IMG/VR virus record: IMGVR_UViG_3300011415_000006
Coordinates: 1 to 49,268 of that record
Length of the DNA stretch: 49,268 nt
From: a virus
Taxonomy: Duplodnaviria; Caudoviricetes
Direction: 5' to 3' (one strand)
The position numbers and the translations under genes were made by a program. The notes beneath the pieces are model-generated. The model was not told the origin of the DNA. It was given only the letters and a program-made list of their open reading frames with translations, and ran no database searches. Positions 141 through 49,250 of the stretch are shown here, piece after piece. Position 1 is the stretch's first letter, and each line of letters opens with the position of its first letter.

Positions 141-719
141 CTCATAGAGCTCATTCTGAGCCCCTTCTACTACGCACGCGCCTGCGTATTTCAAAGCCAT
201 ATAATATAACTTATACAACGCGCCCGCGGTAAAGATAACGCATACGCGGTCTTGATATAACAACAAAGAATAATATTAGTCTATGTTATTAATCTATATA
301 GATTAAGTTCATACTCTTATTCTTATATATAAGAAATCTTAAGATCTGCGTGCGTACGCGGGCCCGTATGTGTACGCACGAGGCAGGTCGGGTGAGCGAG
401 GTCTTGGACGGGTTTCGCCCTGGGCGGGGCGATTCGTGCGATTTTTTTTTGCGATAGGGTGCAGAATGAGCTCCACCCGATTATTTTTGGTTTTGGCGTA
501 CGACTGAGGGAGGGAGAAACCACACATCGCTTCGTCACAGAAAAATCTGATTGCTGCCCTGTCCTTTATTCTTCCGAGCGAGGTACGAGCGAGGCCGGTC
601 ACTGTCATTAACATTTGTCGCACATACTAACTGTGATTGGCATTTGAACCGCCACGTTTTTGGGGTTGCCGGTTCGCCGGTGGCCGCGTGGCCGGTGGCC
701 GGTGGGTGCAATTGGACAC

Positions 720-751
720 AAAAAGGGCGAAGGGGTTGGAATCCCTTCGCC
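720..751 (-). terminator. Intrinsic terminator after the 79-aa gene
   Basis: Minus strand GGCGAAGGGA-TTCCAA-CCCCTTCGCC followed by CTTTT. Confidence 0.65.
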
Positions 752-772
752 GGTCTATGTGGTAACTCGGGG

Positions 773-1012
773 TTACGGTGCGATTGCGTAGGCCATAACT
801 CCGATAAAGGTAATGATACAAAGGGTGGCGAATATCTCGCCAATGGTTGGTAATTGCAGTTCAAGTTGCGGGCGTGCGTTATACGCGTTGCGTGCTTCCT
901 GCGTTTTGGCGTATAGGTGGGCAAGGTCTTGGCGGTAGTGAATCGAGCATAAATCACGTCCGTGCAGGTGGGTGAGTTTGTTTAGGTTGCAGTTGGGTGT
1001 TTGGCATTTCAT
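773..1012 (-). CDS. Small hypothetical protein (N-terminal Cys/His motif, C-terminal TM helix)
   Basis: Strong RBS AAGGAGAATGAGAAACT-ATG; CxxxxC...CxxH; hydrophobic C-terminus; downstream terminator. Confidence 0.7.
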   Translation of the reverse strand: MKCQTPNCNLNKLTHLHGRDLCSIHYRQDLAHLYAKTQEARNAYNARPQLELQLPTIGEIFATLCIITFIGVMAYAIAP

Positions 1013-1049
1013 AGTTTCTCATTCTCCTTAAGATGATCGGTTTAAGATG

Positions 1050-1090
1050 CCTGGCTGAATAGGGCTCGTATTGAATCCTATTCAGCCAGG
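1050..1090. promoter_or_regulatory. Extended hairpin built around a palindrome copy
   Basis: CCTGGCTGAATAGG...CCTATTCAGCCAGG just past the stop of the large wHTH gene. Confidence 0.55.
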
Positions 1091-1099
1091 GCGAATTAG

Positions 1100-2872
1100 T
1101 TAGGCTTTTGCCGCGTCGCTGATAAGAGTTGCTATCGTTTTAGCTTCCTCTTGAATACCGGTGTAGGCCTCACCTATTGCCGCGTCTGCGTCGGCACTCA
1201 TTGCAGCTATTGCGAAAACGCGTGTGATTGCGTTCAAAGCATCCTCAATTGCCGCGTCCCGTTCTACTTCATAGGCGGTTGTTGCCAGTGAAGCAACGTA
1301 GGCTTGGGCTACGCTGACGCGTGTTTCGGGGGTTACGCTTCCGTCTGCTTCCAGTTCTGCCTCTGCTTTCGCTTCGGCCTTCTGGGTTTCGGTGGCTAGT
1401 GCGTCGTTAACCTCTATTACGGTCGCTGACAGCACGTTTTCAAAGCCGGTTAAGGTGGCCTCATCAACGGTGGTTGCGTCGGCATCTTTAACCGAAACGG
1501 CAAGCTGGTTAAGTCGATCGGCAAGCGGGGCGAGGTCTGCTACGTCAACGGTTCGCTCTAGGGTTGAACCGATGGTTTCGCGTAACTTCTCCAGCCGCTT
1601 GCTGGTGTTCGATTTCGTGGCCTGCGTTGCCGCTTCGCTTCGCACGATTTCAGGCTCGGTTAAGCCGGTCACAGCTTCCGTAAGCTGTACCGCGATCTGC
1701 TTAGCGTTCGCTAGGTCATCGTCCGAAACTCCTTTAACTGCTTCGCCGGCTAACAGTTTGCCGGCGAGGTCGGCTACTGCGTACAGCTTTGCACTCTGGG
1801 CGGTTTTCCCTTGTAGCAAGTTCTGGATAATCGTCGATGTTTTCGACAAAATGTCCAGCTTGTAAAGGGTCGGGTTGGGTGCTGATGCTTGACGCATCGA
1901 CACTAAGCCGCGTCCGGTGGCATCCTGCCAGTCGAGCAAGGCGTTGCGGCCACGTTTGATGGTGGCCTTGCTCATTCCGCTAGTCTGAATGATAAAGCCG
2001 TCCGTAGCAGGAAACCAGTCCGTGCTTCCGTTCGATGCTCCTATCAGGAACGAAAGAAAATCAACGGCCTGACGTGGGATCGGCAAGGGTTTGCCGGTTT
2101 CCTTGTCTTTGCTGATTTCTCCTAGCACTCTTACAGCGGCGTGTAATGCCGCGTGGCTTGCGGCCTGAAAAACGTTCGTTTCCTCTGTGTCCATCTTCTT
2201 AAGACGGGGCGAGACGGTCACGCCATTGCCGGTGGTTTCGGTGGCTAGCACAAGTTCGGATGCTGACTCTTCAACGGTTTTCCGTATGTTCAAGTCCGTG
2301 TCTGCCGGTTCACCTATACCGTAATTGCTCAAGGCTTGGCCTAAAGCCGATGGGCCACAGCGGTTAAACATTAGGTCTGCCGGTTGGCAGTCGAGCAAAA
2401 CGCAAAGCATCTGGATTCGTTTCGGGAACTTCTCATCTCCTCCAAATTGGCCTCCGGCGTTGTCCAGAAGTCGGGGCATCTTTAACGGGTTGCCTCCGGC
2501 CTCCTCTTTGGCCTTTTCTACCAGTGCGTCGATCTCGGCCTTAACTGCTTCCCTTTCCTCTGGGGTGAGGGGTGGAACGTCAACAAAGGTCTTTTTCGGT
2601 TTCTCTGCCGCCGGTGCGGTCGCTGTGCCGGTCGCGTCGGTGGCCTGATCGGTTGCCGGTGTGCCGGTCGTTTCGTCGGTTGCGGTGGTGGTGGTTGTCT
2701 GTTCGTTGTTCATTGTGATTTTGACAGGCTCATTATTCCGTCCGTCCTGCGTCGGGTCTAGGGTTGCGAGCTGTTCTGCGGTAAACATAAAGCTCATTTG
2801 CTGAATCGCTGTTGCGTGGTCAAGTCCACGTTCTCGCGTTTCGTATTCGTATTGTTCTGTGAGTGTTCTCAT
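1100..2872 (-). CDS. Large winged helix-turn-helix DNA-binding protein (replication-initiator-like HTH) with Ala/Glu-rich helical C-terminus
   Basis: ~590-aa ORF. Segment WFPATDGFIIQTSGMSKATIKRGRNALL...GLVSM...PTLYKL resembles HTH_36-type wHTH. Thr/Ala-rich N-terminal linker. Start uncertain. Confidence 0.6.
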   Translation of the reverse strand: MRTLTEQYEYETRERGLDHATAIQQMSFMFTAEQLATLDPTQDGRNNEPVKITMNNEQTTTTTATDETTGTPATDQATDATGTATAPAAEKPKKTFVDVPPLTPEEREAVKAEIDALVEKAKEEAGGNPLKMPRLLDNAGGQFGGDEKFPKRIQMLCVLLDCQPADLMFNRCGPSALGQALSNYGIGEPADTDLNIRKTVEESASELVLATETTGNGVTVSPRLKKMDTEETNVFQAASHAALHAAVRVLGEISKDKETGKPLPIPRQAVDFLSFLIGASNGSTDWFPATDGFIIQTSGMSKATIKRGRNALLDWQDATGRGLVSMRQASAPNPTLYKLDILSKTSTIIQNLLQGKTAQSAKLYAVADLAGKLLAGEAVKGVSDDDLANAKQIAVQLTEAVTGLTEPEIVRSEAATQATKSNTSKRLEKLRETIGSTLERTVDVADLAPLADRLNQLAVSVKDADATTVDEATLTGFENVLSATVIEVNDALATETQKAEAKAEAELEADGSVTPETRVSVAQAYVASLATTAYEVERDAAIEDALNAITRVFAIAAMSADADAAIGEAYTGIQEEAKTIATLISDAAKA

Positions 2873-2909
2873 TGGTTCGTGGCGGCCGGTTGGCGGCCAC
2901 AATTATATA

Positions 2910-2925
2910 GGCACGTACCGTGCCA
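2910..2925 (-). promoter_or_regulatory. Possible sigma54 (-24/-12) promoter or palindromic operator
   Basis: Minus strand TGGCACGGTACGTGC (GG-N10-GC), itself palindromic; a TATAAT also lies at 2902-2907 on the minus strand. Confidence 0.4.
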
Positions 2926-3381: not shown

Positions 3382-3410
3382 ATTATAGCACACTTCAAGG
3401 CCGGTGTCAA
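3382..3410 (-). promoter_or_regulatory. sigma70 consensus promoter, leftward
   Basis: TTGACA-17-TATAAT on the minus strand. Confidence 0.8.
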
Positions 3411-3436
3411 CTAATTGCGATAAAATACGGCAAAAC

Positions 3437-3465
3437 TTGACAATTTACTCGAAATGTGTTATACT
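3437..3465 (+). promoter_or_regulatory. sigma70 promoter for the early arm
   Basis: TTGACA-17-TATACT with TG extension. Confidence 0.8.
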
Positions 3466-3552
3466 ATACATAGTATAGAAGTTGACAAGGAGTTGAGGAT
3501 GGGCCTCGGCTCGGGCGGTTTGGATAGGGTTCATTTTGAACCCCATAGGAGA

Positions 3553-3783
3553 ATGAGGTTTATGTGTTACTACTCTGACGAGGATTATGACCTCGGTTTG
3601 ATCGACGGCGTTGGGTTCGCAGACCCAGGCGGCGAGTCCGCCTTACGTGCGGCCACGCCTGATAACCCACGTATCCACCCGTGCCCTGAGTGCGGCCGGC
3701 CGGATATGCTCACGTCTTTGGACGTGAGACATCACTATCGGTGCGATATGTGTGCCGATGAATTACTTTCGGCAATGTCTTGA
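3553..3783 (+). CDS. Small zinc-finger phage protein
   Basis: CPECG...CDMCAD; RBS AGGAG after the palindrome; start 3553 or 3562. Confidence 0.7.
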   Translation: MRFMCYYSDEDYDLGLIDGVGFADPGGESALRAATPDNPRIHPCPECGRPDMLTSLDVRHHYRCDMCADELLSAMS

Positions 3784-3949
3784 TGGGATTCATTATGATA
3801 ATCAAACAAGATTCCTGCCTATACCGCATACTAGCGTTCTTTCCGTGCCTACGGATTGAGCACGTCCGCGTGGGGAGAGACTGCTCTTCCTACGTTTCGA
3901 TCAAGATAAGAATGGGTTCATAATGAGCCCTATTAAAAGGAGAATGAGA

Positions 3950-4372
3950 ATGAGTGCTACATATACAAAAGCAACACGCGATGGTCGTGATGTACTTCTG
4001 AAAGCCGTGGATGGTGTCGTCGTCAAGGTTATAGAATTTGTTGACGATGAGCCGGTAACAAAGAGGCCACCTGAAAAGCGTACCCACGCGGAAAAGATGC
4101 AGGCCGTACAGATGGTCGAACGTATGACCATCCGGCAGGGTATGAGTATCGCCGAGGCTTGCCGTGATACGGGTATAGCCATATCGCAGTACTACCTGTG
4201 GCGAAAGTACGACAGCGACACTGTACCGGCGGAGCCAGAGAACTATGTGCAGAAAATGAAAAGAGAGACTGCCGAGTTCTTGCGGGAGAATCCCGACGTG
4301 GCCGAAATGGTGAACGAGGTACCGGCGGAGAACGTCACACGGTGTAATGCCTGTGGCCAGGAAATCAAATAG
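3950..4372 (+). CDS. HTH protein (transposase-OrfA-like HTH) with C-terminal CxxC
   Basis: GMSIAEACRDTGIAISQYYLWRK; strong RBS; its stop TAG is the first 3 nt of a palindrome copy. Confidence 0.75.
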   Translation: MSATYTKATRDGRDVLLKAVDGVVVKVIEFVDDEPVTKRPPEKRTHAEKMQAVQMVERMTIRQGMSIAEACRDTGIAISQYYLWRKYDSDTVPAEPENYVQKMKRETAEFLRENPDVAEMVNEVPAENVTRCNACGQEIK

Positions 4373-4409
4373 GGTTCATTAAGAGCCCTATCAAATAAGG
4401 AGAATGAGA

Positions 4410-4622
4410 ATGAGCACAATTAAAAGTAACGGCATCACCTTTGAACAGTGGATGCAAGCCGTCGATAATGTACTAATGAGTATGTGCGGCCTCGGCCACG
4501 ACGACCTACCGGACGCACGCTGGCACGACGAATACGACGGTGATAGCACGCCGCGTGAGGCCATCGAGAATAACAACGACTATCTCGAAATACCTGACGA
4601 GCTAATAGGGGGTGACGAATAA
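4410..4622 (+). CDS. Small acidic hypothetical phage protein
   Basis: RBS AAGGAG; DDLPDARWHDEYDGDSTPREA. Confidence 0.75.
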   Translation: MSTIKSNGITFEQWMQAVDNVLMSMCGLGHDDLPDARWHDEYDGDSTPREAIENNNDYLEIPDELIGGDE

Positions 4623-4867
4623 TGCCACTAATCCTAGACATTAAGAACCCCGAAGGCGAGCGGGCTCACGTATACGCGAACCACCCGAAAACGCTTTCAA
4701 TCGCAATGAAAATCATCGACATCGAACGAGGGCAGGAACACGCCTGGGCGAGTATGCAACGGCCACACATCGTGCAAGACCATTACGCCTGGGAACTGAC
4801 TTTCGACGACTGTCCACCAAAGCAGGTCGTCTTAGAGAAAGGCTCGACCATTCACCTATACAGATGA
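4622..4867 (+). CDS. Hypothetical protein
   Basis: TAATG translational coupling to the upstream gene. Confidence 0.65.
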   Translation: MPLILDIKNPEGERAHVYANHPKTLSIAMKIIDIERGQEHAWASMQRPHIVQDHYAWELTFDDCPPKQVVLEKGSTIHLYR

Positions 4868-4870
4868 GCG

Positions 4871-5104
4871 ATGCGAGTATTCGCAAAGTCCAGAGATGAT
4901 TTCTATTATTGCAGAAACGGAATTGCCTACCACTACGACCACGGCGAATTGTATTCGTTCGACTGTAGCGGGCAGTTCCTTTCTGCCTTGTCGCGTCTCT
5001 TCGAGCGAAACATCGTTCGACAAATTGAGACACTCAGGGACACCAACATCGAAGTCGAGGTCAAACAGTGGTTCGACGAGGGTTGGAGTCCGCCGCAGAG
5101 CTAA
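4871..5104 (+). CDS. Hypothetical protein
   Basis: Tightly packed ORF ending immediately before a palindrome copy. Confidence 0.6.
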   Translation: MRVFAKSRDDFYYCRNGIAYHYDHGELYSFDCSGQFLSALSRLFERNIVRQIETLRDTNIEVEVKQWFDEGWSPPQS

Positions 5105-5139
5105 TAGGATTCATAATGAGCCCTATTTGGAGAATGAGA

Positions 5140-5499
5140 ATGAAAAAGGATAAATGCCCCGACTGTGGCAGTACAAACATATTCTATGATGAGCCGGCGA
5201 GTCTTATAGACCGCGTCTGGCCAAAGATGCATTGCTTCGATTGTGAGGTTAAAGTTAAACCACCAATTAACGCCGTCACGATCGAGGTTTCACCACACGA
5301 ACAAACCACCATTGGCGACATTGCCGCAAAGTATCTCATAGGCCGCCAGATCGTCCTAGAGAACAGGAAGTATGAGATACTCGACGCACACAACCGCGAT
5401 GGCTCACGCATCGCATTGCGTATCATCCTAGACAATGGCACGGTTCGTAATCTTTACCTGCCAACGAAATTGGAGCTAGTACGCGAGGAGAATAACTAA
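5140..5499 (+). CDS. Zinc-ribbon hypothetical protein
   Basis: CPDCGS...CFDCE; RBS GGAGAATGAGA-ATG. Confidence 0.7.
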   Translation: MKKDKCPDCGSTNIFYDEPASLIDRVWPKMHCFDCEVKVKPPINAVTIEVSPHEQTTIGDIAAKYLIGRQIVLENRKYEILDAHNRDGSRIALRIILDNGTVRNLYLPTKLELVREENN

Positions 5500-6026
5500 T
5501 GGTACCGAAAGAAGTTCTCGACCGCGTACAGATTGCGATAGATGTTTGCCAAAGCCGGCGGACACTCTACAATCGGCTATTCCTGCTAATGGAGTCATTG
5601 GACGGAAAGCACATCACAAAGGGCATCGTCGATAAAGTCGAGGCCGAAATTCCTGGGTATCGGGCAGACTACATTTTCTCAAAAGGATACGAGAAAGCTG
5701 TCACGTTTTACCCAAAGAACGGTAAGGCCGCGTACACGTCATTGCGATTCCGGTTGGTGTACCTGCCGCATCACGAAAAGGTACACTTTGAATCGTTCAA
5801 AGAGGAGTACGGTAGCCAGCGGGATTTCAATATGGTTCGGTTAATGCAGTTGAAAGCGTTCCAAGCGGACGCCGAAACCGGCCTTAAACGAATCGCAAAG
5901 ACCCTTAAAGCGGTTCGTCGGGTGACGGGCGTGGCTAAGAGTATATTGCACGAATACCGCTATATGACAGACTTGCTCGACGAGCGGGATAAGCAGACCA
6001 TCAAAGGAATGGCCGAAATAGCATAG
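5499..6026 (+). CDS. Hypothetical protein
   Basis: RBS GAGGAG; TAATG coupling; 175 aa. Confidence 0.75.
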   Translation: MVPKEVLDRVQIAIDVCQSRRTLYNRLFLLMESLDGKHITKGIVDKVEAEIPGYRADYIFSKGYEKAVTFYPKNGKAAYTSLRFRLVYLPHHEKVHFESFKEEYGSQRDFNMVRLMQLKAFQADAETGLKRIAKTLKAVRRVTGVAKSILHEYRYMTDLLDERDKQTIKGMAEIA

Positions 6027-6060
6027 GAGCAAAGGGCTCATAACGAGCCCTATTAAAAAT

Positions 6061-6291
6061 ATGGGAACAGTTTCAGAACGAATCGCAAAACAGATTGCGG
6101 AGAATGACGGCCATTACTGCGACGATCCTCGTGTAGCACGCATCGTCGAGTACACGAACTCGTGGGGTGGCCTGGCTTATGGATTGGAATACGCCCACGA
6201 AATTGGGCGGTATGCGGAGTCCGAATTTGTTCGGAATCCGCGGGTTTACTGGCAAGCGGGAGTAGATAACAATAAAAAGGAGAATGAGTAA
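6061..6291 (+). CDS. Hypothetical protein
   Basis: ORF following a palindrome copy; overlaps the next start. Confidence 0.65.
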   Translation: MGTVSERIAKQIAENDGHYCDDPRVARIVEYTNSWGGLAYGLEYAHEIGRYAESEFVRNPRVYWQAGVDNNKKENE

Positions 6292-6661
6292 AATGGTAGA
6301 TTTTGCAAATACAGCACCAAACGAAATGGACGCGATATTACCGTCAGGTAAGACAGCTAAACCGAAGCGGAAAATCAAGGTGATTAAACGCACACCCGAA
6401 GAAAAGGCCGTATTCGTCACAAAAGTTGACGAACTAAAAGACACGATCGGAATGAGCGTTGAAGAGGCCACCAACAAAGTTGGCATCGCAACCTCTCAAT
6501 ACTACGACTGGCGTAAACAGCTTGGCAAGGTGGCGGCCAAGCAGGTAATTAAGACGAACGGGAAAGCGAACGAGCAGTTTACCCGTATTCGACAGCTTGA
6601 GGCCCAGAACGAGCAGTTGAAGATAATGTACGTCGATCTGTTGCTTGCTCAGAACAACTAG
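6284..6661 (+). CDS. IS3-OrfA-like HTH plus leucine-zipper protein (stand-alone)
   Basis: GMSVEEATNKVGIATSQYYDWRKQ followed by RIRQLEAQNEQLKIMYVDLLL; no OrfB/DDE gene follows. Confidence 0.7.
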   Translation: MSKMVDFANTAPNEMDAILPSGKTAKPKRKIKVIKRTPEEKAVFVTKVDELKDTIGMSVEEATNKVGIATSQYYDWRKQLGKVAAKQVIKTNGKANEQFTRIRQLEAQNEQLKIMYVDLLLAQNN

Positions 6662-6678
6662 GGGCTAGAGCCCCGTTT

Positions 6679-6713
6679 CGGGTAGGGTTCACTTTGAGCC
6701 CTACCCGTTTTTT
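6679..6713 (+). terminator. Intrinsic terminator formed from a palindrome copy
   Basis: CGGGTAGGGTTCA-CTT-TGAGCCCTACCCG-TTTTTT. Confidence 0.75.
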
Positions 6714-6726
6714 AGTGGAGAAAATT

Positions 6727-6822
6727 ATGAAAAGTTTAATCTGTTGGTGCGGTGCAAGGATTTTCAATAATCATCACTGCGAGAACGGTCACTTAGTTTT
6801 ACGCTGGCGGAGGAAAATATGA
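6727..6822 (+). CDS. 31-aa Cys/His microprotein (not in ORF track)
   Basis: RBS GGAG; MKSLICWCGARIFNNHHCENGHLVLRWRRKI; ATGA overlap with the next gene. Confidence 0.5.
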   Translation: MKSLICWCGARIFNNHHCENGHLVLRWRRKI

Positions 6823-7262
6823 CGCTTACACCCAAAATGAATTTAGAGTTCAAGAAAGCCCAGGATGCCTTAGTCCGATCTGGCTGGCATCCGCAAACCA
6901 AAAGGTATCAAATTGAAACGAGGCTCGGCTCGGTTCACATCATCGAGATAGCCGAGGGCATCGACAACCCGCGGATGGTCGAGGAGCGTACATATTCTAT
7001 CGTGGCGTGCGGTGAAATCCTATCGCGGGATAAGGCCGTCGAAGTCCTTATGGCTTTATCCGAGTTGGGGTTTATGCCTTTTATCTGCATCATTCAGTTA
7101 CAAGACGGATTGCGATTAACTCGGTCGATCGACGTGCCGGACTATATCTACGATAGTATATCTTGCGATACACGTATCGACCAAGGGGTGGACGAGGCCC
7201 GTAGGCCGCCGTACGCAACAACGATTCCGTTGCTTCCCTTTAGCGAGACTATAATATCTTGA
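6819..7262 (+). CDS. Hypothetical protein
   Basis: RBS GGAGG; 147 aa. Confidence 0.7.
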   Translation: MTLTPKMNLEFKKAQDALVRSGWHPQTKRYQIETRLGSVHIIEIAEGIDNPRMVEERTYSIVACGEILSRDKAVEVLMALSELGFMPFICIIQLQDGLRLTRSIDVPDYIYDSISCDTRIDQGVDEARRPPYATTIPLLPFSETIIS

Positions 7263-7287
7263 CTTTTGCGTCAAAATGAGGTATAAT
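7259..7287 (+). promoter_or_regulatory. sigma70 promoter, probably giving a leaderless mRNA
   Basis: TTGACT-17-TATAAT; ATG at 7295 is 7 nt past the -10. Confidence 0.7.
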
Positions 7288-7294
7288 ATACATT

Positions 7295-7672
7295 ATGGGT
7301 AAAATAGGAAGAACAACTGGCTTTTCTATCGCGGAGGTTTATATCAAGTCGAAATGCGGCAAAAAGGTGACCCGTCGTGAAATGGAAAAATTCATCAAGC
7401 ACGACAAAGCCTCTCAAGAATATCTTCGGAGTCACGCACAAGACCCAGACTTTCGTAATAACTTTATGGAAGGTGTAGACGAAGCGTTGAAGAGTCAGTT
7501 TGGCTATTGCACCCGTATTTTTACGGGCTCGTTTCGAGCGGCCGAAGAAGTTGCCGACTATAAACGAGCCCAGCGGATTAGGGCTCAGATTGAGCGGTAT
7601 CAACCACCGCTACGGCCTCCCCTTCGCCCTGATGAAATACTAGGAAAGAACACAAATGACGATAACCGGTGA
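7295..7672 (+). CDS. Hypothetical protein
   Basis: 125-aa ORF directly after a promoter. Confidence 0.7.
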   Translation: MGKIGRTTGFSIAEVYIKSKCGKKVTRREMEKFIKHDKASQEYLRSHAQDPDFRNNFMEGVDEALKSQFGYCTRIFTGSFRAAEEVADYKRAQRIRAQIERYQPPLRPPLRPDEILGKNTNDDNR

Positions 7673-7907: not shown

Positions 7908-7954
7908 TATGCTGACGACGACGTTTCACTCTGCGGTGGCGTCTGTTGTTGGGG

Positions 7955-7994
7955 AGGGTAGCGGTCTTGGTGGAGTCGCTACCCTTTTTTGTTT
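7955..7994 (+). terminator. Intrinsic terminator
   Basis: AGGGTAGCG...CGCTACCCT followed by TTTTTGTTT. Confidence 0.7.
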
Positions 7995-8016
7995 GTAAGG
8001 GCTCAAAATGACCCCT

Positions 8017-41351: not shown

Positions 41352-41396
41352 TATCTCTCTCCTTCCAAAGATTCCTAGGGTTCAAATTGAGCCCTA

Positions 41397-43028
41397 TTAG
41401 ATACCGGTGATACGGATAAGAGCGTGCGGCACCTTAGCAAGCAACCCGCCTCTCATCGTGGCACGAAGCGTCAACATATCTTCGCGAAACTGGTTATCGA
41501 CCCAACCGATGTCCAGACGAACCGCCCGACGGAGCAAAATACGCACAGTCTGTCGAAACGCACCCGCTATCGCTACACCCGCTGGCATACGAATATCATA
41601 GACGATTTTCGCACCGCGGACGCTGGACAGTTCGGAATCGGTGTATAACCGATAACCATCGTTGTCCTTAAGGAAGGTCATTTCGACAAAATCGTCGTGC
41701 GACATCAGGACACAATCGACGTTGTACCCGTATGCCTGAGCGTCGAAAATCGCTCGTTCGATCGTTTCGCGGGTATTATCGGTCGCAACACCAGGCATCA
41801 TCACGTTGCCCATAAACGACGCCGCTCCACGATGGATACGAGTCGATAGGCCAACCAACGCCAGAAGTCCCGTCAGTTCGGGATATTCACCACCGCTTCC
41901 ATCGCCATTGATTAGCTGGTCATAGAACTCTTGGCGAACGTTTTCCATCAACTGTGTTTCGACGGCATCCGCAATCGAAGGACAGTCCTCCAAGAATTCT
42001 TCTGACACAGCCAGAGTGTCGGCAAAAGTGATCGTGTTCGCCCGTGCTTGCGAGAAGCCAAACTCCGATTCCGGTTTGATGGGACGGAAATCAACCGCAA
42101 CCGCAGTAGGATTGGCCGCACTAAGCACGACGGACTCACCGACACCCGATGCATTGTTAATGCGGAGCGTTTGTCTCACGTAGAGAACGTAAGACTTTGA
42201 GATTCGTCGAACGGGGATACATTGGAGGAAAGATACAGGCGGATAGGGCAGTAGCTCGACATCATCATCGACGATGTATTCGCACAGTCCGCCTGTATTT
42301 CCGGCGAATACGGCGGTCGGAGCGTAAAGTGACCCGTCGCCGCCGGACTGTCCAGGAACCTGCGTAAACATCGACTTGACAGCCTCACGGTATTCGCCAA
42401 CTGCCGCCTCAATTTCACTGGCCTTACCTATCTCAAGACCGAGGCTCTTCGAGGCCGATCGAAGCTCTCTCTGTTGAGAACCAAAAGTACCATAAAACGA
42501 AGCGGCACAGTTGAATCTCTGACCATTCTTGAGCGGATAGGTCGCAACCGCCCCCCGCGATTTGATGTCCTCGGATTTTAGCAATCCGGTCTTGCCGAGA
42601 AAGGAATGGAAATCGTTTCCGAAACGCTGGAAAAACGATTCCTTCTTCTGCGGATAAAGCCCTTCGACGTTCGGCATCATCATCCCGCCCATCGTCACTG
42701 GCCCCGTAACCCCTGCCACGGCGGCCTCAAGAGCTTTCTCGCTAATTTCCTCGCCGGCTTCGATCGACTCATCATAGCTGAGAAGCTGTTCACGACGCTT
42801 TTTCTGTTCGCCAATGCGACCCTCGATATCGGCCATCCCTGACTTGAAGGTATCATCGACGCACTCCTCACCACCAAGAGTACCCGTCTTTCGGCAAGCA
42901 CAATCAGTTTTGTGGTTCTTTTCGAGTTCGGCCCTCTTTTCTAAAAGAGCCGCCCCTTCTGTGTTGATTTCTTGAGCAAGTGTGTTGCGGTTATCAACAA
43001 GGGCCTTTATGAGTTCAGTGTATTTCAT
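41397..43028 (-). CDS. Major capsid protein (HK97 fold, with N-terminal scaffold domain)
   Basis: VGES...KPESEF...VSEEFLED...DQLINGDGS...LTGL...FREDMLTLRATMR. Confidence 0.92.
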   Translation of the reverse strand: MKYTELIKALVDNRNTLAQEINTEGAALLEKRAELEKNHKTDCACRKTGTLGGEECVDDTFKSGMADIEGRIGEQKKRREQLLSYDESIEAGEEISEKALEAAVAGVTGPVTMGGMMMPNVEGLYPQKKESFFQRFGNDFHSFLGKTGLLKSEDIKSRGAVATYPLKNGQRFNCAASFYGTFGSQQRELRSASKSLGLEIGKASEIEAAVGEYREAVKSMFTQVPGQSGGDGSLYAPTAVFAGNTGGLCEYIVDDDVELLPYPPVSFLQCIPVRRISKSYVLYVRQTLRINNASGVGESVVLSAANPTAVAVDFRPIKPESEFGFSQARANTITFADTLAVSEEFLEDCPSIADAVETQLMENVRQEFYDQLINGDGSGGEYPELTGLLALVGLSTRIHRGAASFMGNVMMPGVATDNTRETIERAIFDAQAYGYNVDCVLMSHDDFVEMTFLKDNDGYRLYTDSELSSVRGAKIVYDIRMPAGVAIAGAFRQTVRILLRRAVRLDIGWVDNQFREDMLTLRATMRGGLLAKVPHALIRITGI

Positions 43029-43065
43029 ATTTGCCTTCCTATATAGCTAGGGTTCACTTTGAGCC

Positions 43066-43758
43066 CTAGAGGTTAATTATTGGTATGGGTTGTGTGACTT
43101 GCTCAAGGCTCGTCAAGAAATCCTCGGTGACTACGAATTTCTCCCCCGAAGATAGGGATTCTTTCAAGGACGTTAACGCCGCCGCTAATTTCTCGCGTTG
43201 GCCATTCGCATCCTTAACAAGAAAGTCCAAATGCTCTTGAATCTTAGCAGTCTGTTCGTCTTGCATCTGCTTGAGATAGAACATTAAAAAATCGTTTTTG
43301 GTACGGGTGATTCGTGGATTTTCGTAGTCGGCGGGTGTGAGAGTTGCTGACTGTTCTGCAATTAGCCACGTATCTAATTTGAAGGCCCCATCGACGAGCG
43401 AAGCCGACCTCGTATGACCGGCCGCACCAGCGGAGGAGCGATAAGGTTTTGAGATGATTTCGCTGAACGCCTCGTTGCCTTTCGGGGTATCAAAGAAGGT
43501 TGCTTCGTAAGTCCAACCGTCACTCGACTTTTCATAGACGGCATCGGCTACAATGGCTTTACCAAACTTTGGTGACCATCCGTGTTCCATTAGAAATGGA
43601 CGGTCAGACCCGTTTTTTAATCCGGTGACGGTTTCAGAATTAAAGAACTCTCCATCTGAATCTTTCGTTGAAGAGTCTCCAAATCTGACGCCCGTACCGT
43701 GAATAACGAGATGTTTAACGGACTTCACGGCGTCGAGATTCTCTTTATATTCGAGCAT
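43066..43758 (-). CDS. Prohead protease
   Basis: Between portal and capsid; DSDGEFF, LMEHG, SSAG, EQSATLTPA motifs. Confidence 0.8.
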   Translation of the reverse strand: MLEYKENLDAVKSVKHLVIHGTGVRFGDSSTKDSDGEFFNSETVTGLKNGSDRPFLMEHGWSPKFGKAIVADAVYEKSSDGWTYEATFFDTPKGNEAFSEIISKPYRSSAGAAGHTRSASLVDGAFKLDTWLIAEQSATLTPADYENPRITRTKNDFLMFYLKQMQDEQTAKIQEHLDFLVKDANGQREKLAAALTSLKESLSSGEKFVVTEDFLTSLEQVTQPIPIINL

Positions 43759-43828
43759 TGTATTAGTAAGGTAGGGCTCAGAATGAGCCCTTTCGAGAAA
43801 ACAGAGATAATCGAGGAAGTCAAAATGG

Positions 43829-43857
43829 ATATTATCACAAAAACCAAGTTTTGTCAA
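43829..43857 (-). promoter_or_regulatory. sigma70 promoter upstream of protease/capsid
   Basis: TTGACA-17-TAATAT with TG extension; palindrome copy 43772 lies in the 5' UTR. Confidence 0.65.
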
Positions 43858-43866
43858 GTGGAAAAA

Positions 43867-45288
43867 TTATTCTAAGGCGTTTTCTTTCTCAATACTTTGT
43901 TCGCCGGTTCCAACTGATAAATTGGTTGAAGCACCACCCATTTGAGGTTGAGTTTCCGAGTAAAATTGGTCTCTTTCTTCTGCTGTAAGGTCAGAAGAGT
44001 CCTCATTTACAAACTCAAGGAACTTACCGCGGGTGATAACGTTCAGCTGATACCATCGCTCATACTGGCGGAAGTCTTTGCTACGAGCATATTGAGCGAG
44101 AGCCATTTCCGAAGTATCCGTCCAAACACGGAATTTAGACTTTGTGTTCGGAATAAACTTCGGAATCAAAAACTTCCCAAGCCGCTGATTCATACGCTCT
44201 TGGAGAGGTTTAATTTTCTGGTTGTAAAAGTCGATAGCGTCCTGCTGACGGCTTGCTCGCTGACCACCCGACTTTAAGCCAACCCAAAAGAGCGAAGGAG
44301 GGATTTTCCAGACCGCCGTAACTAGAGATTCAAGATACAGTAATAAATCTGGATTCATCAATTCCGGCAAGGCACTACCAATTTTGTTCACTCGCCAATC
44401 ACCACGAAGCCCGAGCCAGCCGCCTGGCCTAATGCCGCTTCGCCCTATCTTAGCGTAAACCCGCTGAACGGCTTCTTCTATCTGATCGTCTGTAATGCTG
44501 GCGGCCACCGAGTCTTTTGTCAGGTCAACAACTCTTGTCAGCAAATGCGTCGGGTGAGCCCCTTCTGTAAAGAAGCGTTCAAGCTGATCGAGGTATATTT
44601 TGTGAATCTTGAAAATCTTATTGAGAGGATTATTCGGTAACGATACGCCGATCGAATAGCTAATCGGATTGTAGAGAACGTCAACGTACAGTGAGGTAGA
44701 GCTCAATTTGAGCGGTGGTAAATCCTCATACCCGAGAGGTTGATAATACCAGTCCGCCTCAAAAGGATTTGACACCCAATCCTGTGCCACGCGGCCAGGA
44801 AAGATAAGGTCAAAGCAGTTTGTTTCTCGATTGATTTTACCGTTCGGAAAGATGTCGCCCTTCTGAAACATAAAGGCGTACACCAACCCAAAGATATGTA
44901 GGTGAGTTGCGTAGGCACGAAGAAACTCTTTTATATCCATTGTTGGATTCGGTTGCCCAATCCATTCAGCTAACGGATTATTAGTATGTTCCTTCCAACG
45001 ATTTCCAACAACGTGTTCTTCAACGATTGTCCGACCGTCTGCGACCTCATCGTTAACCAACGACTGAGCCGCATAACACAACGGGTTCGTTAAATAAATC
45101 AAGGCGGCATCAACAAATCGTTCGTGCCACCCAATATTTGAATCTTCCAGTAGTGGACGGGTGCGAATCGTCTTACCCTGTCCAATTGGAACAAAATCAA
45201 CGTTTGATTGCCGGAGTAGGGTAAGTTTATCAATTTCTCGGGAAAGCGGCCTACTCGTGATAAAGGGTTTCTCTATACTTACTGGCAT
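43867..45288 (-). CDS. Portal protein
   Basis: PNPTMD...HLHIFGLVY...FFTEGAHP...VTAVWKIPPSL; follows TerL. Confidence 0.85.
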   Translation of the reverse strand: MPVSIEKPFITSRPLSREIDKLTLLRQSNVDFVPIGQGKTIRTRPLLEDSNIGWHERFVDAALIYLTNPLCYAAQSLVNDEVADGRTIVEEHVVGNRWKEHTNNPLAEWIGQPNPTMDIKEFLRAYATHLHIFGLVYAFMFQKGDIFPNGKINRETNCFDLIFPGRVAQDWVSNPFEADWYYQPLGYEDLPPLKLSSTSLYVDVLYNPISYSIGVSLPNNPLNKIFKIHKIYLDQLERFFTEGAHPTHLLTRVVDLTKDSVAASITDDQIEEAVQRVYAKIGRSGIRPGGWLGLRGDWRVNKIGSALPELMNPDLLLYLESLVTAVWKIPPSLFWVGLKSGGQRASRQQDAIDFYNQKIKPLQERMNQRLGKFLIPKFIPNTKSKFRVWTDTSEMALAQYARSKDFRQYERWYQLNVITRGKFLEFVNEDSSDLTAEERDQFYSETQPQMGGASTNLSVGTGEQSIEKENALE

Positions 45289-45493
45289 CGTGATTATCCT
45301 CTGGGAAGTATGGTAAAGGTTTTGCTAACTCTTCTCTATTCTTAACGACTTGCAGAAAGTCGTTTCCGTTTCGATAAATTAAACTGAGAAAGATAATAGC
45401 CAAGTGGATTGTGAATACAGTCCCTATTATAGCTCCATTTACCAGAAAAAAGCAAGCCGCCAACTTCAAAATAAGCCAAAATATTTCATCCAT
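45251..45493 (-). CDS. Small membrane protein between TerL and portal
   Basis: Long hydrophobic N-terminal segment. Confidence 0.5.
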   Translation of the reverse strand: MDEIFWLILKLAACFFLVNGAIIGTVFTIHLAIIFLSLIYRNGNDFLQVVKNREELAKPLPYFPEDNHDASKYRETLYHE

Positions 45494-45515
45494 AAGATAG
45501 GGCTCAATTTGAGCT

Positions 45516-46850
45516 CTAATTTGAAAATTCATCACCCAAAAGATGGATGATATCAGCTGATTTCTGACCGGTAAAGATCGAAGGACGGAGGCTCTGCGGC
45601 TCGATTACTCGTGATTTCATAAGCTGTTGATACCCACCGCAGAAAAAGACAAAAGCTAAAAAATTGCCTGAAATGCCGTCCACATAATCATCGTGTTCAC
45701 CGGCCGGAAAACTACGCATTTCATCTAACACGTCCGACATACCTGGCCCCTCCACGTATGCTACCCGCTTACTACGCATTTCTAACGCCCATAGGTTCGC
45801 CCGCTCTTCTTTACTTTGCGAGGTAAAGACACGTCCGGCCGGATACTTCTTGATTCCCGCCAATTCGTTGTCCATTTGAATCATTTGCCACGCAATTCCA
45901 CCAATCCCCTCCGTTTCAAAAATATGCATCACTTCCGGTTCCATCAGAAGTTGCTGTTTTATCATCGGATACGTCGAGCCCCAAACGCCTCGATAACGAA
46001 CAGGGTCTGAAATGATAAACTGTGGCCTGTCTGTAACCGTTAGCTTAGATGATGCCGTATAATCGCCATCTGCCGAATTAGCGATATCCCAATATCGAAG
46101 CTGATAAAGCGGCATTTGGCCAAATAAGGCTTCGTTAAGCGTTTTATAGACTCCAAGATATTCCAGATCGAACGGGTTATTCCCGAGGGCTACAAACTTA
46201 CCTTCCCATTCTTGAGCGTACTCAAGCGGATCGAGCAAGCCTCTCTGATTTTCTAACTCTTCTTTCGGGAAATAGGGATTCGTCGAAGTCGGCATTATCC
46301 ACGAGTTCCAATCTCCAAATATCGGATTTTTGCCAAGTTCGTAATAATAGTGAAAATCATTGAATCCGCGGGGTGTTGAAAAGAACCAAACATCGCCCAT
46401 TAAATCGCCAACCGTCGGAAGTAGGATTAGTTTGAAGATTTGTCGTAAAGCAATGATTAAAGCGGCTTCGTCAATAATGATTCGCTTATATTTACGACCG
46501 CGAATGTTCTCCGGCTTGTCCAACGACCAAAATTCAATCACAAAGCTGTCTAAAATCTCAGCTGTGTGTTCTTGCTCGTTTTTTGATGAAATTATCTTCT
46601 TGAAAGTGCGTTTGAAGTTACGCCAAGTAGGGGCTAAGTTCTTATATGTGGGGCTCATATAGCCCATATCCTCGGCCAAGCCGTTATTGAGGTTATGAGC
46701 CACCACTTCCGCCACTAATTGTGACGTTAAGTGAGTTTTGCCCCACCGGCGACCGCACGAAAGAACGTTAAAACGTTTTCTGTCTCTCGAAACGAGGGCT
46801 TGAGCCGGATGAGGAGCATCTAATGGAACGTCAACTTTCTTTCTCGGCAT
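45516..46850 (-). CDS. terL: Terminase large subunit
   Basis: Walker A CGRRWGKT, Walker B IIIDEAA, STPRG coupling motif, nuclease YWDIA and HDDYVD. Confidence 0.96.
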   Translation of the reverse strand: MPRKKVDVPLDAPHPAQALVSRDRKRFNVLSCGRRWGKTHLTSQLVAEVVAHNLNNGLAEDMGYMSPTYKNLAPTWRNFKRTFKKIISSKNEQEHTAEILDSFVIEFWSLDKPENIRGRKYKRIIIDEAALIIALRQIFKLILLPTVGDLMGDVWFFSTPRGFNDFHYYYELGKNPIFGDWNSWIMPTSTNPYFPKEELENQRGLLDPLEYAQEWEGKFVALGNNPFDLEYLGVYKTLNEALFGQMPLYQLRYWDIANSADGDYTASSKLTVTDRPQFIISDPVRYRGVWGSTYPMIKQQLLMEPEVMHIFETEGIGGIAWQMIQMDNELAGIKKYPAGRVFTSQSKEERANLWALEMRSKRVAYVEGPGMSDVLDEMRSFPAGEHDDYVDGISGNFLAFVFFCGGYQQLMKSRVIEPQSLRPSIFTGQKSADIIHLLGDEFSN

Positions 46851-46862
46851 AAATAGGGCTCA

Positions 46863-47645
46863 CTATGAGCTCTTTTCCTCTTCGTCGTCACCTTCTTCAA
46901 CAATTTCAGCGTCAACGTACTGAATAGGTGCAAATTGCTCCCGAACATCTTTGTTAACGAAGGTAAACTCAACCACAGTTTTGCCTTGTTTGCGGTCTTG
47001 TTCGGTTTCTTCGGCCAATTCCTTCGCCAAAGGGTCTTTATAACCCACCGTACCCAATTCAGCGATATTATAGCCACCCCTTTGACGACCGGCATACATT
47101 TTATTGAATACCATTTTGATGATTTCGGGGTCGTCATTTATCAAACCCTCGATAATCTTCTTATCGGTAAGCCCTTTAACGCCTTCGTGGGCAACTTCAA
47201 AATAAACTTGCAGTTCAGGGTTGTTTACGACTAACCACCGGAGCCGACTAGGGCTCATTTTGAGCCGTTCTGCGGCAAGGTCTATCGAGCAGTACGATCG
47301 AATCAATTGAAGCCCGATATTATGAACATCCTCTGCCGGAATGTTATCACCTAGAAGGACGTGAGAATCACCCAAGCCCTTCATTATCCGATTCATTATC
47401 TGTTCCTTCGGAATCTTCGAGTCTTTGACCTTTTGATTGGCGACCGAATTTCGTATACCATTCGCTTGGTCTAGCACTTCGCTGAAAGAATCTGTCAACG
47501 ATGTCTGCAATAACTTCGATTGATTGCTCATACCCTGGTCGAGCTCGTCTCGTAGCGTCACAGGGCTTCTTCCGGCAATGCCACCACGCTCGGTCACAAA
47601 ACCGGCACCGGCGGATTTTATTCTCTGGCCTAGCTTCGATCTCAT
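46863..47645 (-). CDS. terS: Terminase small subunit
   Basis: HTH SIDLAAERLKMSPSRLRWLVVNNPEL...DPEIIKMVF...RQRGGY; directly upstream of terL; start uncertain. Confidence 0.7.
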   Translation of the reverse strand: MRSKLGQRIKSAGAGFVTERGGIAGRSPVTLRDELDQGMSNQSKLLQTSLTDSFSEVLDQANGIRNSVANQKVKDSKIPKEQIMNRIMKGLGDSHVLLGDNIPAEDVHNIGLQLIRSYCSIDLAAERLKMSPSRLRWLVVNNPELQVYFEVAHEGVKGLTDKKIIEGLINDDPEIIKMVFNKMYAGRQRGGYNIAELGTVGYKDPLAKELAEETEQDRKQGKTVVEFTFVNKDVREQFAPIQYVDAEIVEEGDDEEEKSS

Positions 47646-47979
47646 TTCGTAACCTCTCTACCTCTTGTTTTGTAATGTAGTATTTTTTTCCGTGATTAAA
47701 GACACTAGGATGGGACGAATAAATCGTAGGATTAATAACAACCAATAGCTCTGAACGATAGATTCTGTTGTACTCTAATTCTTTGTGAAGATTGTGTCGC
47801 GACCAACGATGGCTTATCATTTTAGCGGCTTCGTCAAAGCTAACGTAATCGAAAAGCCTCTCTGAAAGGAAGTCGGGGTCAGTAATCTCCTGCCCGTAAG
47901 CATCCGTAATCTTACATTCCGAGAGCTCCGCTTCTACCGAGAGTAAGCCAGCCCTCCTAGTTTTACGAAGATTTTCCAT
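47368..47979 (-). CDS. Hypothetical DNA-binding protein (MerR/excisionase-like HTH, Cys cluster)
   Basis: VSFDEAAKMI...KYYITKQEVERL; CRFC...C....C. Confidence 0.55.
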   Translation of the reverse strand: MENLRKTRRAGLLSVEAELSECKITDAYGQEITDPDFLSERLFDYVSFDEAAKMISHRWSRHNLHKELEYNRIYRSELLVVINPTIYSSHPSVFNHGKKYYITKQEVERLRNEIEARPENKIRRCRFCDRAWWHCRKKPCDATRRARPGYEQSIEVIADIVDRFFQRSARPSEWYTKFGRQSKGQRLEDSEGTDNESDNEGLG

Positions 47980-47983
47980 AATC

Positions 47984-48014
47984 AAAAAAGGGGAGCAGGG
48001 TTTGCCCTGCTCCC
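47984..48014 (-). terminator. Intrinsic terminator
   Basis: Minus strand GGGAGCAGGG-CAAA-CCCTGCTCCC-CTTTTTT. Confidence 0.8.
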
Positions 48015-48035
48015 AGATCAAGAATTTGACGACGA

Positions 48036-48203
48036 TTATTCGTCGTCGTCGTCGGCCGAACCTCGTCGCTTATCCCTGCCGGCCACCTTCTCGGCTTCCC
48101 GTCTTGCATCTTTCTTATCAGGTGTCTCCGGCGGGGCCGGCGTGGTTTCCGTTTCCGTGGTTGTTTGAGTCTGTTCGGTCGTCGTGTCTTTTTCCTGTTG
48201 CAT
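48036..48203 (-). CDS. 55-aa disordered charged protein (not in ORF track)
   Basis: RBS AAGGAAGG; MQQEKDTTTEQTQTTTETETTPAPPETPDKKDARREAEKVAGRDKRRGSADDDDE; followed by a terminator. Confidence 0.6.
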   Translation of the reverse strand: MQQEKDTTTEQTQTTTETETTPAPPETPDKKDARREAEKVAGRDKRRGSADDDDE

Positions 48204-48391
48204 ATTTTACCTTCCTTGTATTAATCTATTTTCTCGTGCACTCATCTTGTAATCTTGCTACGTCGTTCCCGTGGCCGGAACCGCAAAGCTATCCGGCCAC
48301 GGGATAGCGGATAGGGGAAGGAGGATTTATGGCTCAGCTGTCTGCCCCTAGCCGCGTTGCTCCCTAGTTAGGGTAGGGAGCAATTTGAGCT

Positions 48392-48826
48392 CTATTGGAG
48401 TATGTGAACTAGGAGGTTCACATCGCCGACGAGGTCTACCTGGGTGCCTGCGGCTGAGTACGTATTAACGCCGATTGTGTCGTCTGTGAGGCGACTGGCT
48501 CTTGCACTCATCGCCGTAGCTCCGATCGTTATTTGTGCTGAAACTGTGAAGCACTTACCGGCTGGAAAGGCTCCGACTAATGTACCTACGTAGGCCCCTG
48601 GGCCGGTGCGAGTCCAGACGACGGGAGCACCTAGCCCGTTGCTTTTAACTGAGGCCGTGGGGGCGGTTGCACCCGACTGCGTAAGCACGGCCATATACAC
48701 CTTCGAGGGAAAAGCAGATGAATAAATCTTCTGGCCGTTCCAGTCGATGTAATTGCCGTTGGCATCATTCTTGAGGGATAAACGATTGTTAACACCGGTG
48801 TCCGTTTGAACTAACCTTCTAGCCAT
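48392..48826 (-). CDS. Hypothetical virion-like beta-rich protein
   Basis: KVYMAVLTQSGATAPTA...WTRTGPGAY; own promoter; stop supplied by the palindrome. Confidence 0.75.
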   Translation of the reverse strand: MARRLVQTDTGVNNRLSLKNDANGNYIDWNGQKIYSSAFPSKVYMAVLTQSGATAPTASVKSNGLGAPVVWTRTGPGAYVGTLVGAFPAGKCFTVSAQITIGATAMSARASRLTDDTIGVNTYSAAGTQVDLVGDVNLLVHILQ

Positions 48827-48865
48827 TTCATTCTCCGTCTTGTTTGGATTTGGGATTTGAAAGCT

Positions 48866-48894
48866 ATCTTACCACAGCTTTTTCTTTTTGTCAA
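48866..48894 (-). promoter_or_regulatory. sigma70 promoter
   Basis: TTGACA-17-TAAGAT with TG extension. Confidence 0.7.
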
Positions 48895-48905
48895 GAAGCC
48901 CGAAT

Positions 48906-48941
48906 AAAAAAGGGGTAGAGCTCATTACGAACCCTACCCCT
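48906..48941 (-). terminator. Intrinsic terminator formed from a palindrome copy
   Basis: Minus strand AGGGGTAGGGTTCG-TAA-TGAGCTCTACCCCT-TTTTT. Confidence 0.75.
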
Positions 48942-49250
48942 CTCCTGTCTCCATCTCAATCACGGACTCGCCCCCTTGAAACTGACGGAGGCTTCGTGGA
49001 TTCCGGCATACTAAACCTGCGACCGTACAATCGCAGGGTTCCGCAAAGCCTCCATATAACCACTCCTTTCCCCTTATCCACTTCTTCCGCTGATACAGCT
49101 CATTGTGAGCCCTACCCGCAAACGAACCTGTCCCCTTTTATATTTGCTAGGGCAAGAAGAATCGCTTCCGAAGAAGCTCCCCTGAAGTTTAACTTCCCGT
49201 CCTCCCAAGACTTCTTGCCCCCTTAACTGCTCTTCCTAACCACATATTAA
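48906..49250 (-). ncRNA. Candidate ~345-nt structured ncRNA
   Basis: Bounded by the promoter at 112-140 (across the junction) and the terminator at 48906-48941; multi-stem structure; no long ORF on this strand. Confidence 0.55.

Follow-up and report, generated by a model that had tools for sequence, protein, structure and literature searches.

Introduction

The closest described relatives of the DNA element studied here are found in mycobacteriophages. The Cluster O phages, which have no integrase, carry 34 copies of a 7-3-7 palindrome, located mostly away from promoters and, in the available part of the report, of unknown function (PMC4351075). In the Cluster A phages, more than 20 dispersed sites termed stoperators lie in promoters and short intergenic spaces where, according to the accessible text, the bound repressor halts elongation (PMC9283540). 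We have analyzed the IMG/VR virus record IMGVR_UViG_3300011415_000006 (Caudoviricetes), whose whole stretch of 49,268 nucleotides is hereafter called the window, and an array of 54 palindromic 21-bp sites that covers it. A sequence-only reading of this DNA had presented the array as an undescribed genome-marking system. This has to be withdrawn for the type of array, since that of Cluster O is published, at least in the part of the report available (PMC4351075), and phage phiC31 has 16 dispersed palindromes.

Results

The array is real, selected and evenly spaced

The 54 sites fit TAGGGCTCA-N3-TGAGCCCTA with at most 4 mismatches out of 18 positions (none in one site, one in 14, two in 24, three in 13 and four in 2). 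They stand far above the controls: at up to 3 mismatches 52 sites are counted versus 0.01 expected from 100 dinucleotide shuffles of the window, and the lowest weight-matrix score of a site is 16.0 versus 2.8 for the best non-site. Other spacer lengths (0-2 and 4-7 bases) gave at most two matches each at up to 4 mismatches. The 3-bp spacer is 88% A/T and 52 of the 54 sites are distinct 21-mers. The gaps between sites average 910 bp, with a coefficient of variation (CV) of 0.51 and a maximum of 1,942 bp. When sites are placed at random the largest gap has a median of 3,981 bp, and none of 200,000 random layouts reached the observed maximum or CV, so that the number and evenness of the sites claimed earlier are borne out. 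Their density is about 1.1 per kb genome-wide, being higher in the early arm (1.37 per kb) than in the late arm (26 sites, 0.86 per kb). The stretch 41002-47267 recurs with 100% identity in a separate 6.3-kb viral record (L085), its 6 sites included. Altogether, these data confirm that the array is real and selected.

Single low-depth contigs from two metagenomic runs (X11 and X7) suggest strain variants carrying one more site, at 7219-7251 ahead of the promoter at 7259 in the first case and at 17681 ahead of the gene at 17680 in the second. We also noticed that gaps of less than 700 bp between neighbouring sites (42 in the window and the relative G006 described below) are weakly biased to half-integer helical turns (P=0.005 at 10.5 bp, 0.03 across the period range); this phasing varies with the cut-off and is seen neither in the relative L274 nor in the shortest G006 gaps.

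Placement relative to genes

Gene junctions hold 38 of the 54 sites, though 86% of positions are gene-internal and with the reservation that gene starts were set by hand, so that a few sites could change class. A site is present at 31 of the 55 junctions, where it often begins at the stop codon and is followed by a ribosome-binding site. The 16 remaining sites lie in coding sequence, where synonymous recoding of the same proteins gave a mean of 0.89 internal sites and a maximum of 4 in 300 trials; the peptide D-R-A-Q-D-E recurs at internal sites of three unrelated proteins. Each of the five genes longer than 1.9 kb has one to three internal sites, the longest site-free genes measuring 1.77 and 1.63 kb, and the junction sites alone would leave a largest gap of 5,018 bp. 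When the junction sites were fixed and the 16 internal ones randomised in coding DNA, spacing was still even beyond chance, as had been claimed (largest gap, P=1.6e-4; CV, P=1e-5), and the 10 internal sites of the late arm taken alone also fill gaps (P=4e-5). The evenness is thus partly a by-product of gene structure. We nevertheless conclude that genome-wide cover is selected in the window genome, because the internal sites exceed the recoding expectation and break the longest gaps.

Systematically broken symmetry

Our measurements argue for a feature of the array that the sequence-only reading did not mention, namely that its symmetry is systematically broken. A single site out of 54 is a perfect palindrome versus 7.1 expected with shuffled arms (P=0.001), mismatches between arms number 103 versus 91.8 for shuffled arms (P=0.005), the deviations of one arm are anti-correlated with those of the other (-0.51), and the real sites fold more weakly than shuffled-arm sites. 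The motif itself is symmetric (9-3-9), the upstream and downstream arms sharing one profile on the transcribed strand, and in the 50 sites with an assignable strand, that strand shows 26 G-U wobbles and 25 A-C mismatches. No match for the sites was found in Rfam. Since pairing is avoided and the wobbles have no strand bias, the sites are therefore better described as double-stranded protein sites than as RNA hairpins. This supports what had been proposed from the letters, binding by a dimeric protein remaining a prediction.

The same array with a changed word in related phages

About 18 other terminases are 56-76% identical to that of the window. Among the corresponding relatives, G006 is complete (70,494 bp), its capsid protein being 54% identical and its structural genes mostly 29-57%. 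The window word is absent from this genome, which has instead 65 sites of TTAA(C/G)T(A/G)GACA-TAA-TGTC(T/C)A(G/C)TTAA, with the core CA-N3-TG as in the window. Here again perfect palindromes are lacking (0 of 65 versus 8.3 expected), and one position differs between the arms in 50 of the 65 sites. The contigs L206 and L274, which represent one phage (terminase 78%), contain 9 sites of the window word in 3.3 kb, none of them perfect; in the stretch shared with L274, all 7 window sites have a syntenic L274 site, 5 in register by global alignment. The G006-type word is also found in L212 (2 sites, terminase 62%) and L213 (1 site, 64%). As relatives carry either the window word or the G006 word, we consider the array a trait of the clade whose word has been switched. 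The spacing in G006 is evener than random (CV 0.72, P=0.003), with 58 of the 65 sites at junctions and 7 internal. However, genes of 3.1, 3.0 and 2.5 kb are site-free and some gaps reach 3.0-3.4 kb (maximum 3,358 bp), so that a strict 2-kb lattice is not universal in the clade: of the lattice first described, the evenness stands for the window and the strict spacing does not.

Palindrome arrays with an own word per genome also occur in a separate clade, which comprises G007-G011 (L308-L321) together with L004, L007, L017, L023, L031, L064 and L067. An example is CCTAACA-N-TGTTAGG, with 22 copies in G007. These arrays are limited to one stretch of about 6-10 kb beside a terminase-like gene and are not genome-wide; the terminase-like proteins are 23-28% identical to that of the window over long matches and about 50% or more to each other. 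Another, distant viral contig (L209) has a tandem array of 15-bp units at 3294-3540.

Promoters and sites

In the window, nine sequences match the sigma-70 consensus at 11 or 12 of 12 positions. For both divergent promoter pairs and the late promoter (Table 1), a site lies 39-160 bp downstream. Under a null that ignores the intergenic preference shared by promoters and sites, the inter-site intervals that hold promoters are short in the window (671 vs 1,150 bp, P=5e-4, 9 promoters) as well as in G006 (498 vs 1,648 bp, P=1e-4, 5 promoters); in part, this reflects that very preference. At two positions a site fills exactly the 17-bp spacer of a promoter match, at 18822-18850 (+) (11/12), which faces the end of the late arm in antisense orientation, and at 11204-11232 (+) (10/12).

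Candidate readers of the sites

Judging from its predicted structure and its gene context, the orphan protein P0001 would be the best candidate reader of the sites. Its gene stands alone on its own 12/12 promoter, with sites in the leader and at the end and none inside, and translation possibly starts at Met55 (2710), where most members of the family begin. The AlphaFold2 model, built with 12 sequences, has a mean pLDDT (predicted local distance difference test) of 71.5, with 71-87 over the winged-helix blocks, and predicts helical bundles at residues 413-589; with a predicted template-modelling score (pTM) of 0.29, the packing of the domains is left undefined. Foldseek returned nothing at E<=0.001, and the compact matches are winged helices from both initiators and repressors. 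P0001 is common to the window and G006 (26% identity). Its family counts 11 further members at E<=1e-10, including the G006 protein used in the profile; they are 21-33% identical to P0001, and the recognition helix varies around an almost invariant arginine. No P0001 homologue was found in the G007-G011 clade. The longest contigs for four members of the family and four terminase relatives are equal in size, an indirect sign that the P0001 gene travels with the clade. In the P0001 leader, we observed a second 7-3-7 palindrome as two exact copies 64 bp apart (3054-3070 and 3118-3134), possibly the operator of another regulator; it has no close copy in G006.

Besides P0001, the non-structural genes common to the window and G006 encode an XRE-type helix-turn-helix (HTH) protein (43%), a nuclease-like protein, SSB, a 214-aa orphan, ERF, a small open reading frame (ORF), an HTH protein preceding the terminase small subunit (TerS), and TerS itself. 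In both genomes the 214-aa gene holds one site within its 5' end, and a second lies at the stop codon; the protein has four homologues and matched no family, DNA-binding or other. The whole locus (9798-10533 in the window, 57,900-59,070 in G006) keeps its layout, with divergent consensus promoters and three or four sites. The early arm of the window also encodes two paralogous IS3-like HTH proteins without transposase (3944-4372 and 6284-6661); as candidate readers they have no G006 match. The pre-TerS HTH protein and TerS are disfavoured as readers, as their putative recognition helices are alike across different words and unlike within the same word (4 and 5 phages, respectively).

Genome, host and origin-like cassette

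The window is a complete circular genome of siphovirus type, with a 123-base end repeat and 49,145 bp of unique sequence, in agreement with its virus record class (direct terminal repeats). The rightward arm, from about 3.4 to 18.7 kb, contains small genes including those of SSB, ERF, a GH25 lysin and several HTH proteins. The lysin gene (15939-16811), located in this early arm, encodes a long Pro/Glu-rich C-terminal tail. We scanned 61 ORFs, picked from 241 mechanical ORFs as non-overlapping likely genes, against PHROGs and Pfam, and 28 of them also against NCBIfam. Neither scan revealed an integrase or ParA/ParB, and among the 61 ORFs there was no polymerase, primase, helicase or replication initiator other than the candidate P0001, and no match to the ParB, TetR or MatP families.

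The host is probably an Acidobacterium of the Pyrinomonadaceae/Blastocatellia group, as judged by the SSB gene. Near-identical DNA is present in freshwater-sediment metagenomes (5 runs with at least half of the sampled words, among which may be the source run itself). A degenerate site pattern with 22 matches in the window has 1 match in 401 sampled Pyrinomonadaceae genomes, as does a control pattern, and at one mismatch no site was found in 5 genomes. For the host family deduced from SSB, the array is thus not a host repeat.

Two sites flank a cassette of about 300 bp near the 3' end of the P0001 gene, which encloses the most A/T-rich 90 bp of the genome and might be an origin. L274 has the same layout (83% A/T, sites 297 bp apart). 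In G006 the cassette is similar, with sites 307 bp apart, also near the 3' end of the P0001 gene, and its A/T tract is not the most A/T-rich window of that genome. No iteron array was found in positions 1-3500 besides the palindromes and two-copy repeats. The cumulative GC skew follows transcription and is thus indecisive on the origin. Reading the G006 translations drew attention to four further genes, listed at the end of Table 1.

Table 1. Coordinates of the features discussed (window positions unless G006 is indicated)
Feature	Position	Strand	Details	Basis
21-bp palindromic sites, n=54	145..49114	.	starts 1-27: 145, 455, 1060, 2979, 3205, 3525, 3912, 4370, 5105, 6032, 6683, 7579, 7997, 8838, 9098, 9780, 10384, 10569, 11208, 11559, 12586, 13727, 14988, 15912, 17101, 17910, 18826; starts 28-54: 20324, 20918, 21766, 23525, 24895, 26837, 28116, 29313, 30546, 32034, 33134, 34050, 35168, 36485, 37223, 39053, 39816, 41376, 43048, 43772, 44697, 45498, 46854, 47249, 48374, 48916, 49094	pattern match, shuffles, weight matrix
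Sites in coding sequence, n=16	3525..47269	.	3525, 7579, 10384, 11559, 14988, 17910, 20324, 20918, 23525, 26837, 29313, 30546, 32034, 39053, 44697, 47249	
P0001, orphan, 590 aa	1100..2872	-	N-terminal helical domain, central winged helix, acidic Ala-rich helical bundles	model and homologues
Predicted winged helix of P0001	1856..2074	-	residues 267-339; recognition helix 302-319, wing 324-339	AlphaFold2
Sigma-70-type promoter, late genes	112..140	-	11/12, extended -10, across the circle join into packaging/structural genes; site 145 directly upstream, site 49094 146 bp downstream	
Divergent sigma-70-type promoter pair	3382..3465	.	leftward 12/12 to P0001, rightward 11/12 into early arm; sites 160 and 63 bp downstream of predicted starts	
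Second divergent promoter pair	10460..10533	.	both 12/12; sites 59 and 39 bp downstream; same layout in G006 (+46, +26)	
Cassette, about 300 bp, putatively origin-like	145..475	.	between two sites; most A/T-rich 90 bp of genome at 256-345 (82%)	
XRE-type HTH protein, 83 aa	7656..7907	+	43% identical to G006 protein; alternative candidate reader	
Orphan protein, 214 aa	9798..10442	-	own leftward promoter; G006 homologue 25%; candidate second reader or target	
SSB	9153..9590	+	closest cellular relatives Pyrinomonadaceae/Blastocatellia (55-75%, among 80 loci listed)	protein search
Late arm	18844..48826	-	TerS, TerL (terminase large subunit), portal, capsid, neck, tape measure, tail	PHROGs and Pfam
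G006, ECF-sigma-like gene	6695-7372			translation reading
G006, second N-terminal terminase piece	11533-12216		29% to window terminase	translation reading; identity by comparison
G006, DinG-like helicase	41098-42999			translation reading
G006, winged-helix P0001 paralogue, 226 aa	67155-67835		E 1.7e-9	translation reading; E value by comparison

Discussion

We propose that the sites are occupied by dimers of the 590-aa winged-helix protein that the phage encodes, forming direction-independent roadblocks that pace or silence transcription genome-wide. Expressed immediately from a consensus sigma-70 promoter of its own, P0001 would bind the sites as a dimer and dampen read-through from strong host-type promoters, including the one before the late genes, until replication of the genome titrates it off the sites. 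The slight asymmetry of the sites may keep the contact with the protein while avoiding hairpins in RNA and single-stranded DNA, and P0001 may also mark an origin through the two sites that flank the A/T-rich cassette. We rank this explanation first since, in the window as in G006, the inter-site intervals that hold strong promoters are unusually short; we hold it tentatively, its chances being in our view slightly below even. An architectural role and initiator titration, both considered below, rank second and third, and the three are mutually compatible.

Several observations weigh against the proposed roadblock. Its main weakness is twofold. With neither integrase nor ParA/ParB among the scanned ORFs, there is no sign of a temperate state; and stoperators require orientation and are not simple steric blocks, according to the accessible part of the source, so that a symmetric site may not stop RNA polymerase (PMC9283540). 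The distance from a promoter to the next downstream site is significantly short in G006 (P=0.007) and not in the window (395 vs 574 bp, P=0.10). Even cover is loosened by the long gaps of G006, where gap filling is weak or borderline (largest gap, P=0.053). As to P0001, the protein and the motif are both in hand for two genomes only, the window and G006, which likewise share the XRE and 214-aa proteins, and the best compact fold matches of P0001 include replication-initiator domains. Finally, neither a close terminase nor a full-length P0001 relative was found in the 401 sampled host-family genomes, which yielded 9 distant terminases (including the unpublished G043), so that nothing indicates a silent prophage state.

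An architectural coat or self-mark, in which a dimer docked about every kb bridges the DNA through the helical C-terminal part of the protein and compacts, tethers or marks it against phage and host nucleases and silencers, with secondary effects on transcription, is possible and, to our mind, unlikely. It would account well for the internal sites that fill long gaps in the late arm, where there are no internal promoters, for the predicted 180 or so residues of helical bundles after the winged helix, for the near absence of the motif from the likely host and for the weak helical phasing. However, this phasing is fragile, as described above, and large genes of G006 are empty. The sites are densest near promoters and in the early arm, and the 61 ORFs yielded neither a partner nuclease nor a ParB-type clamp. 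Replication control is another explanation: the protein would be an initiator, the two cassette sites its origin boxes, and the other 52 sites would titrate or handcuff it and so set the copy number in a non-integrating state. Precedents are datA for DnaA and incA for P1 RepA. Supporting this idea, no other initiator or replication enzyme was found among the scanned ORFs, Foldseek retrieved 4pql and 4pt7 ('Structure of initiator') with probabilities of 1.00 and 0.99 and a root-mean-square deviation of 3.2 over 84 columns, members of the P0001 family have weak HTH_36 and lambda-O-like matches, and three phages keep two sites about 300 bp apart around an A/T tract. On the other hand, the E-values of these fold matches are 0.2-0.6 and the repressors CodY, PerR and MarR score alike, known iterons are clustered, titration needs neither even spacing nor a position behind promoters, and the cassette could as well be a packaging site. 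We therefore judge it quite unlikely. An ordinary dispersed regulon with another reader, namely the XRE protein, the 214-aa orphan or a host protein, seems to us improbable. Both phage genes are common to G006, the XRE recognition helix differs at three positions, and the 214-aa gene shows an autoregulation-like layout in both genomes. Nevertheless, a 21-25-bp site with A/T-rich outer flanks is more in keeping with a winged helix than with a dimer of the 83-aa XRE protein, the 214-aa protein matched no DNA-binding family, and a host reader would imply sites in the host, where a single match was found.

Two further explanations fare worse. Checkpoints for packaging or ejection, read by TerS or a virion protein, would agree with the even cover of the whole genome and the HTH in TerS. 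Yet the TerS helix is nearly the same in the window and G006, which have different words, and differs between G006, L212 and L213, which share a word type, and the bias to junctions and promoters would be unexpected, which makes this reading very improbable. Thus, of the functions put forward from the sequence only, packaging checkpoints are disfavoured, whereas coating, self-marking and silencing still stand as candidates. Hairpins in RNA or single-stranded DNA (terminators, processing or priming signals), or short homologies for gene shuffling, are barely tenable and already largely refuted. They could draw on the junction bias, on the sites 6683, 1060 and 48916, which are built into terminator-like hairpins, and on the deletions between Cluster O repeats mentioned in the available part of the report (PMC4351075). 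Against hairpins, the arms avoid pairing in the window and G006, and both the wobble count and the Rfam search are negative; against shuffling, nearly all sites differ from each other, and internal sites are unable to bound cassettes.

One could also imagine a broader, rather unlikely scheme in which a clade of non-integrating Acidobacteria phages would possess an initiator-like winged-helix 'chromatin'. The protein would dock about every kb on imperfect, phage-specific palindromes, even in tail and tape-measure genes, bridge them via its bundles, and couple origin firing, transcriptional timing and self-marking, while word and recognition helix would switch together like immunity types.

Parallels can be drawn with several known systems. 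Winged-helix initiators (RepA_N, lambda O, DnaA with datA) resemble the window system by the fold, by a gene near a site-flanked A/T-rich tract and by the lack of another replication gene among those scanned; the window differs by symmetric, genome-wide sites, none of them in the candidate gene, and by weak fold matches. Like parS/ParB, Noc-NBS, SlmA-SBS, MatP-matS and KorB-OB, the array consists of palindromes spread over a replicon for a presumably dimeric protein, but it has about one site per kb on a 49-kb genome, and none of the 61 ORFs matches ParB, TetR or MatP. Phage phiC31 (AJ006589) has symmetric, mostly intergenic sites genome-wide, which we take to be the CIR elements bound by repressor C, with one before and one inside the gene of this 683-aa repressor. 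These palindromes, 16 in number or 0.39 per kb, have a perfect 12-bp core in 15 cases and are not significantly even in spacing, and phiC31 integrates, whereas no integrase was found in the window phage. Repressor C showed no homology to the P0001 profile (hhalign probability 0.2%, E 0.38; no HMM match).

The stoperators of Cluster A phages such as L5 and TipsytheTRex provide a working model for how an array of dispersed promoter and intergenic sites could act. From the accessible part of the source, they differ by an asymmetric 13-mer oriented with transcription, a 183-aa monomer as reader and a temperate life style (PMC9283540), the window having symmetric 21-bp sites, twice as many, no integrase found and another candidate protein. 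No gp71-type repressor (HTH and stoperator domain) is among the matches listed for the P0001 profile against PDB sequences or for P0001 against GenBank phages. The nearest parallel is the Cluster O repeat (17 bp in Corndog, TGTTCGG-N3-CCGAACA). As far as the available text goes, it has inverted arms, a 3-bp A/T-rich spacer and tens of copies between and inside genes, it is absent from the host, and its phages, like the window phage, have neither integrase nor parAB (PMC4351075). The word is different, however: that of the window is degenerate with longer arms, while the Cluster O arms are given as invariant (PMC4351075). By the same measures, the 37 Corndog sites (0.53 per kb) include 34 perfect ones and are spaced much as at random (CV 0.91, largest gap 6,910).

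The type of array is thus already known, though unexplained, and what is new here is its density, gap filling, avoidance of perfect symmetry and motif switching; no published account of the array or the protein of this clade was found in the main texts of a mostly non-subscription literature. Moreover, a 21-bp site that bacterial genomes nearly lack, and of which orthogonal variants exist, could find use as a genetic tool. The function of dispersed palindromes in integrase-less phages has been open since the Cluster O report, which, in its available part, named no reader (PMC4351075). The present clade offers a sharper case: the density is doubled, even cover is selected at a cost in protein sequence, perfect symmetry is selected against, related genomes use two words, and a single family with a variable recognition helix is the candidate reader.

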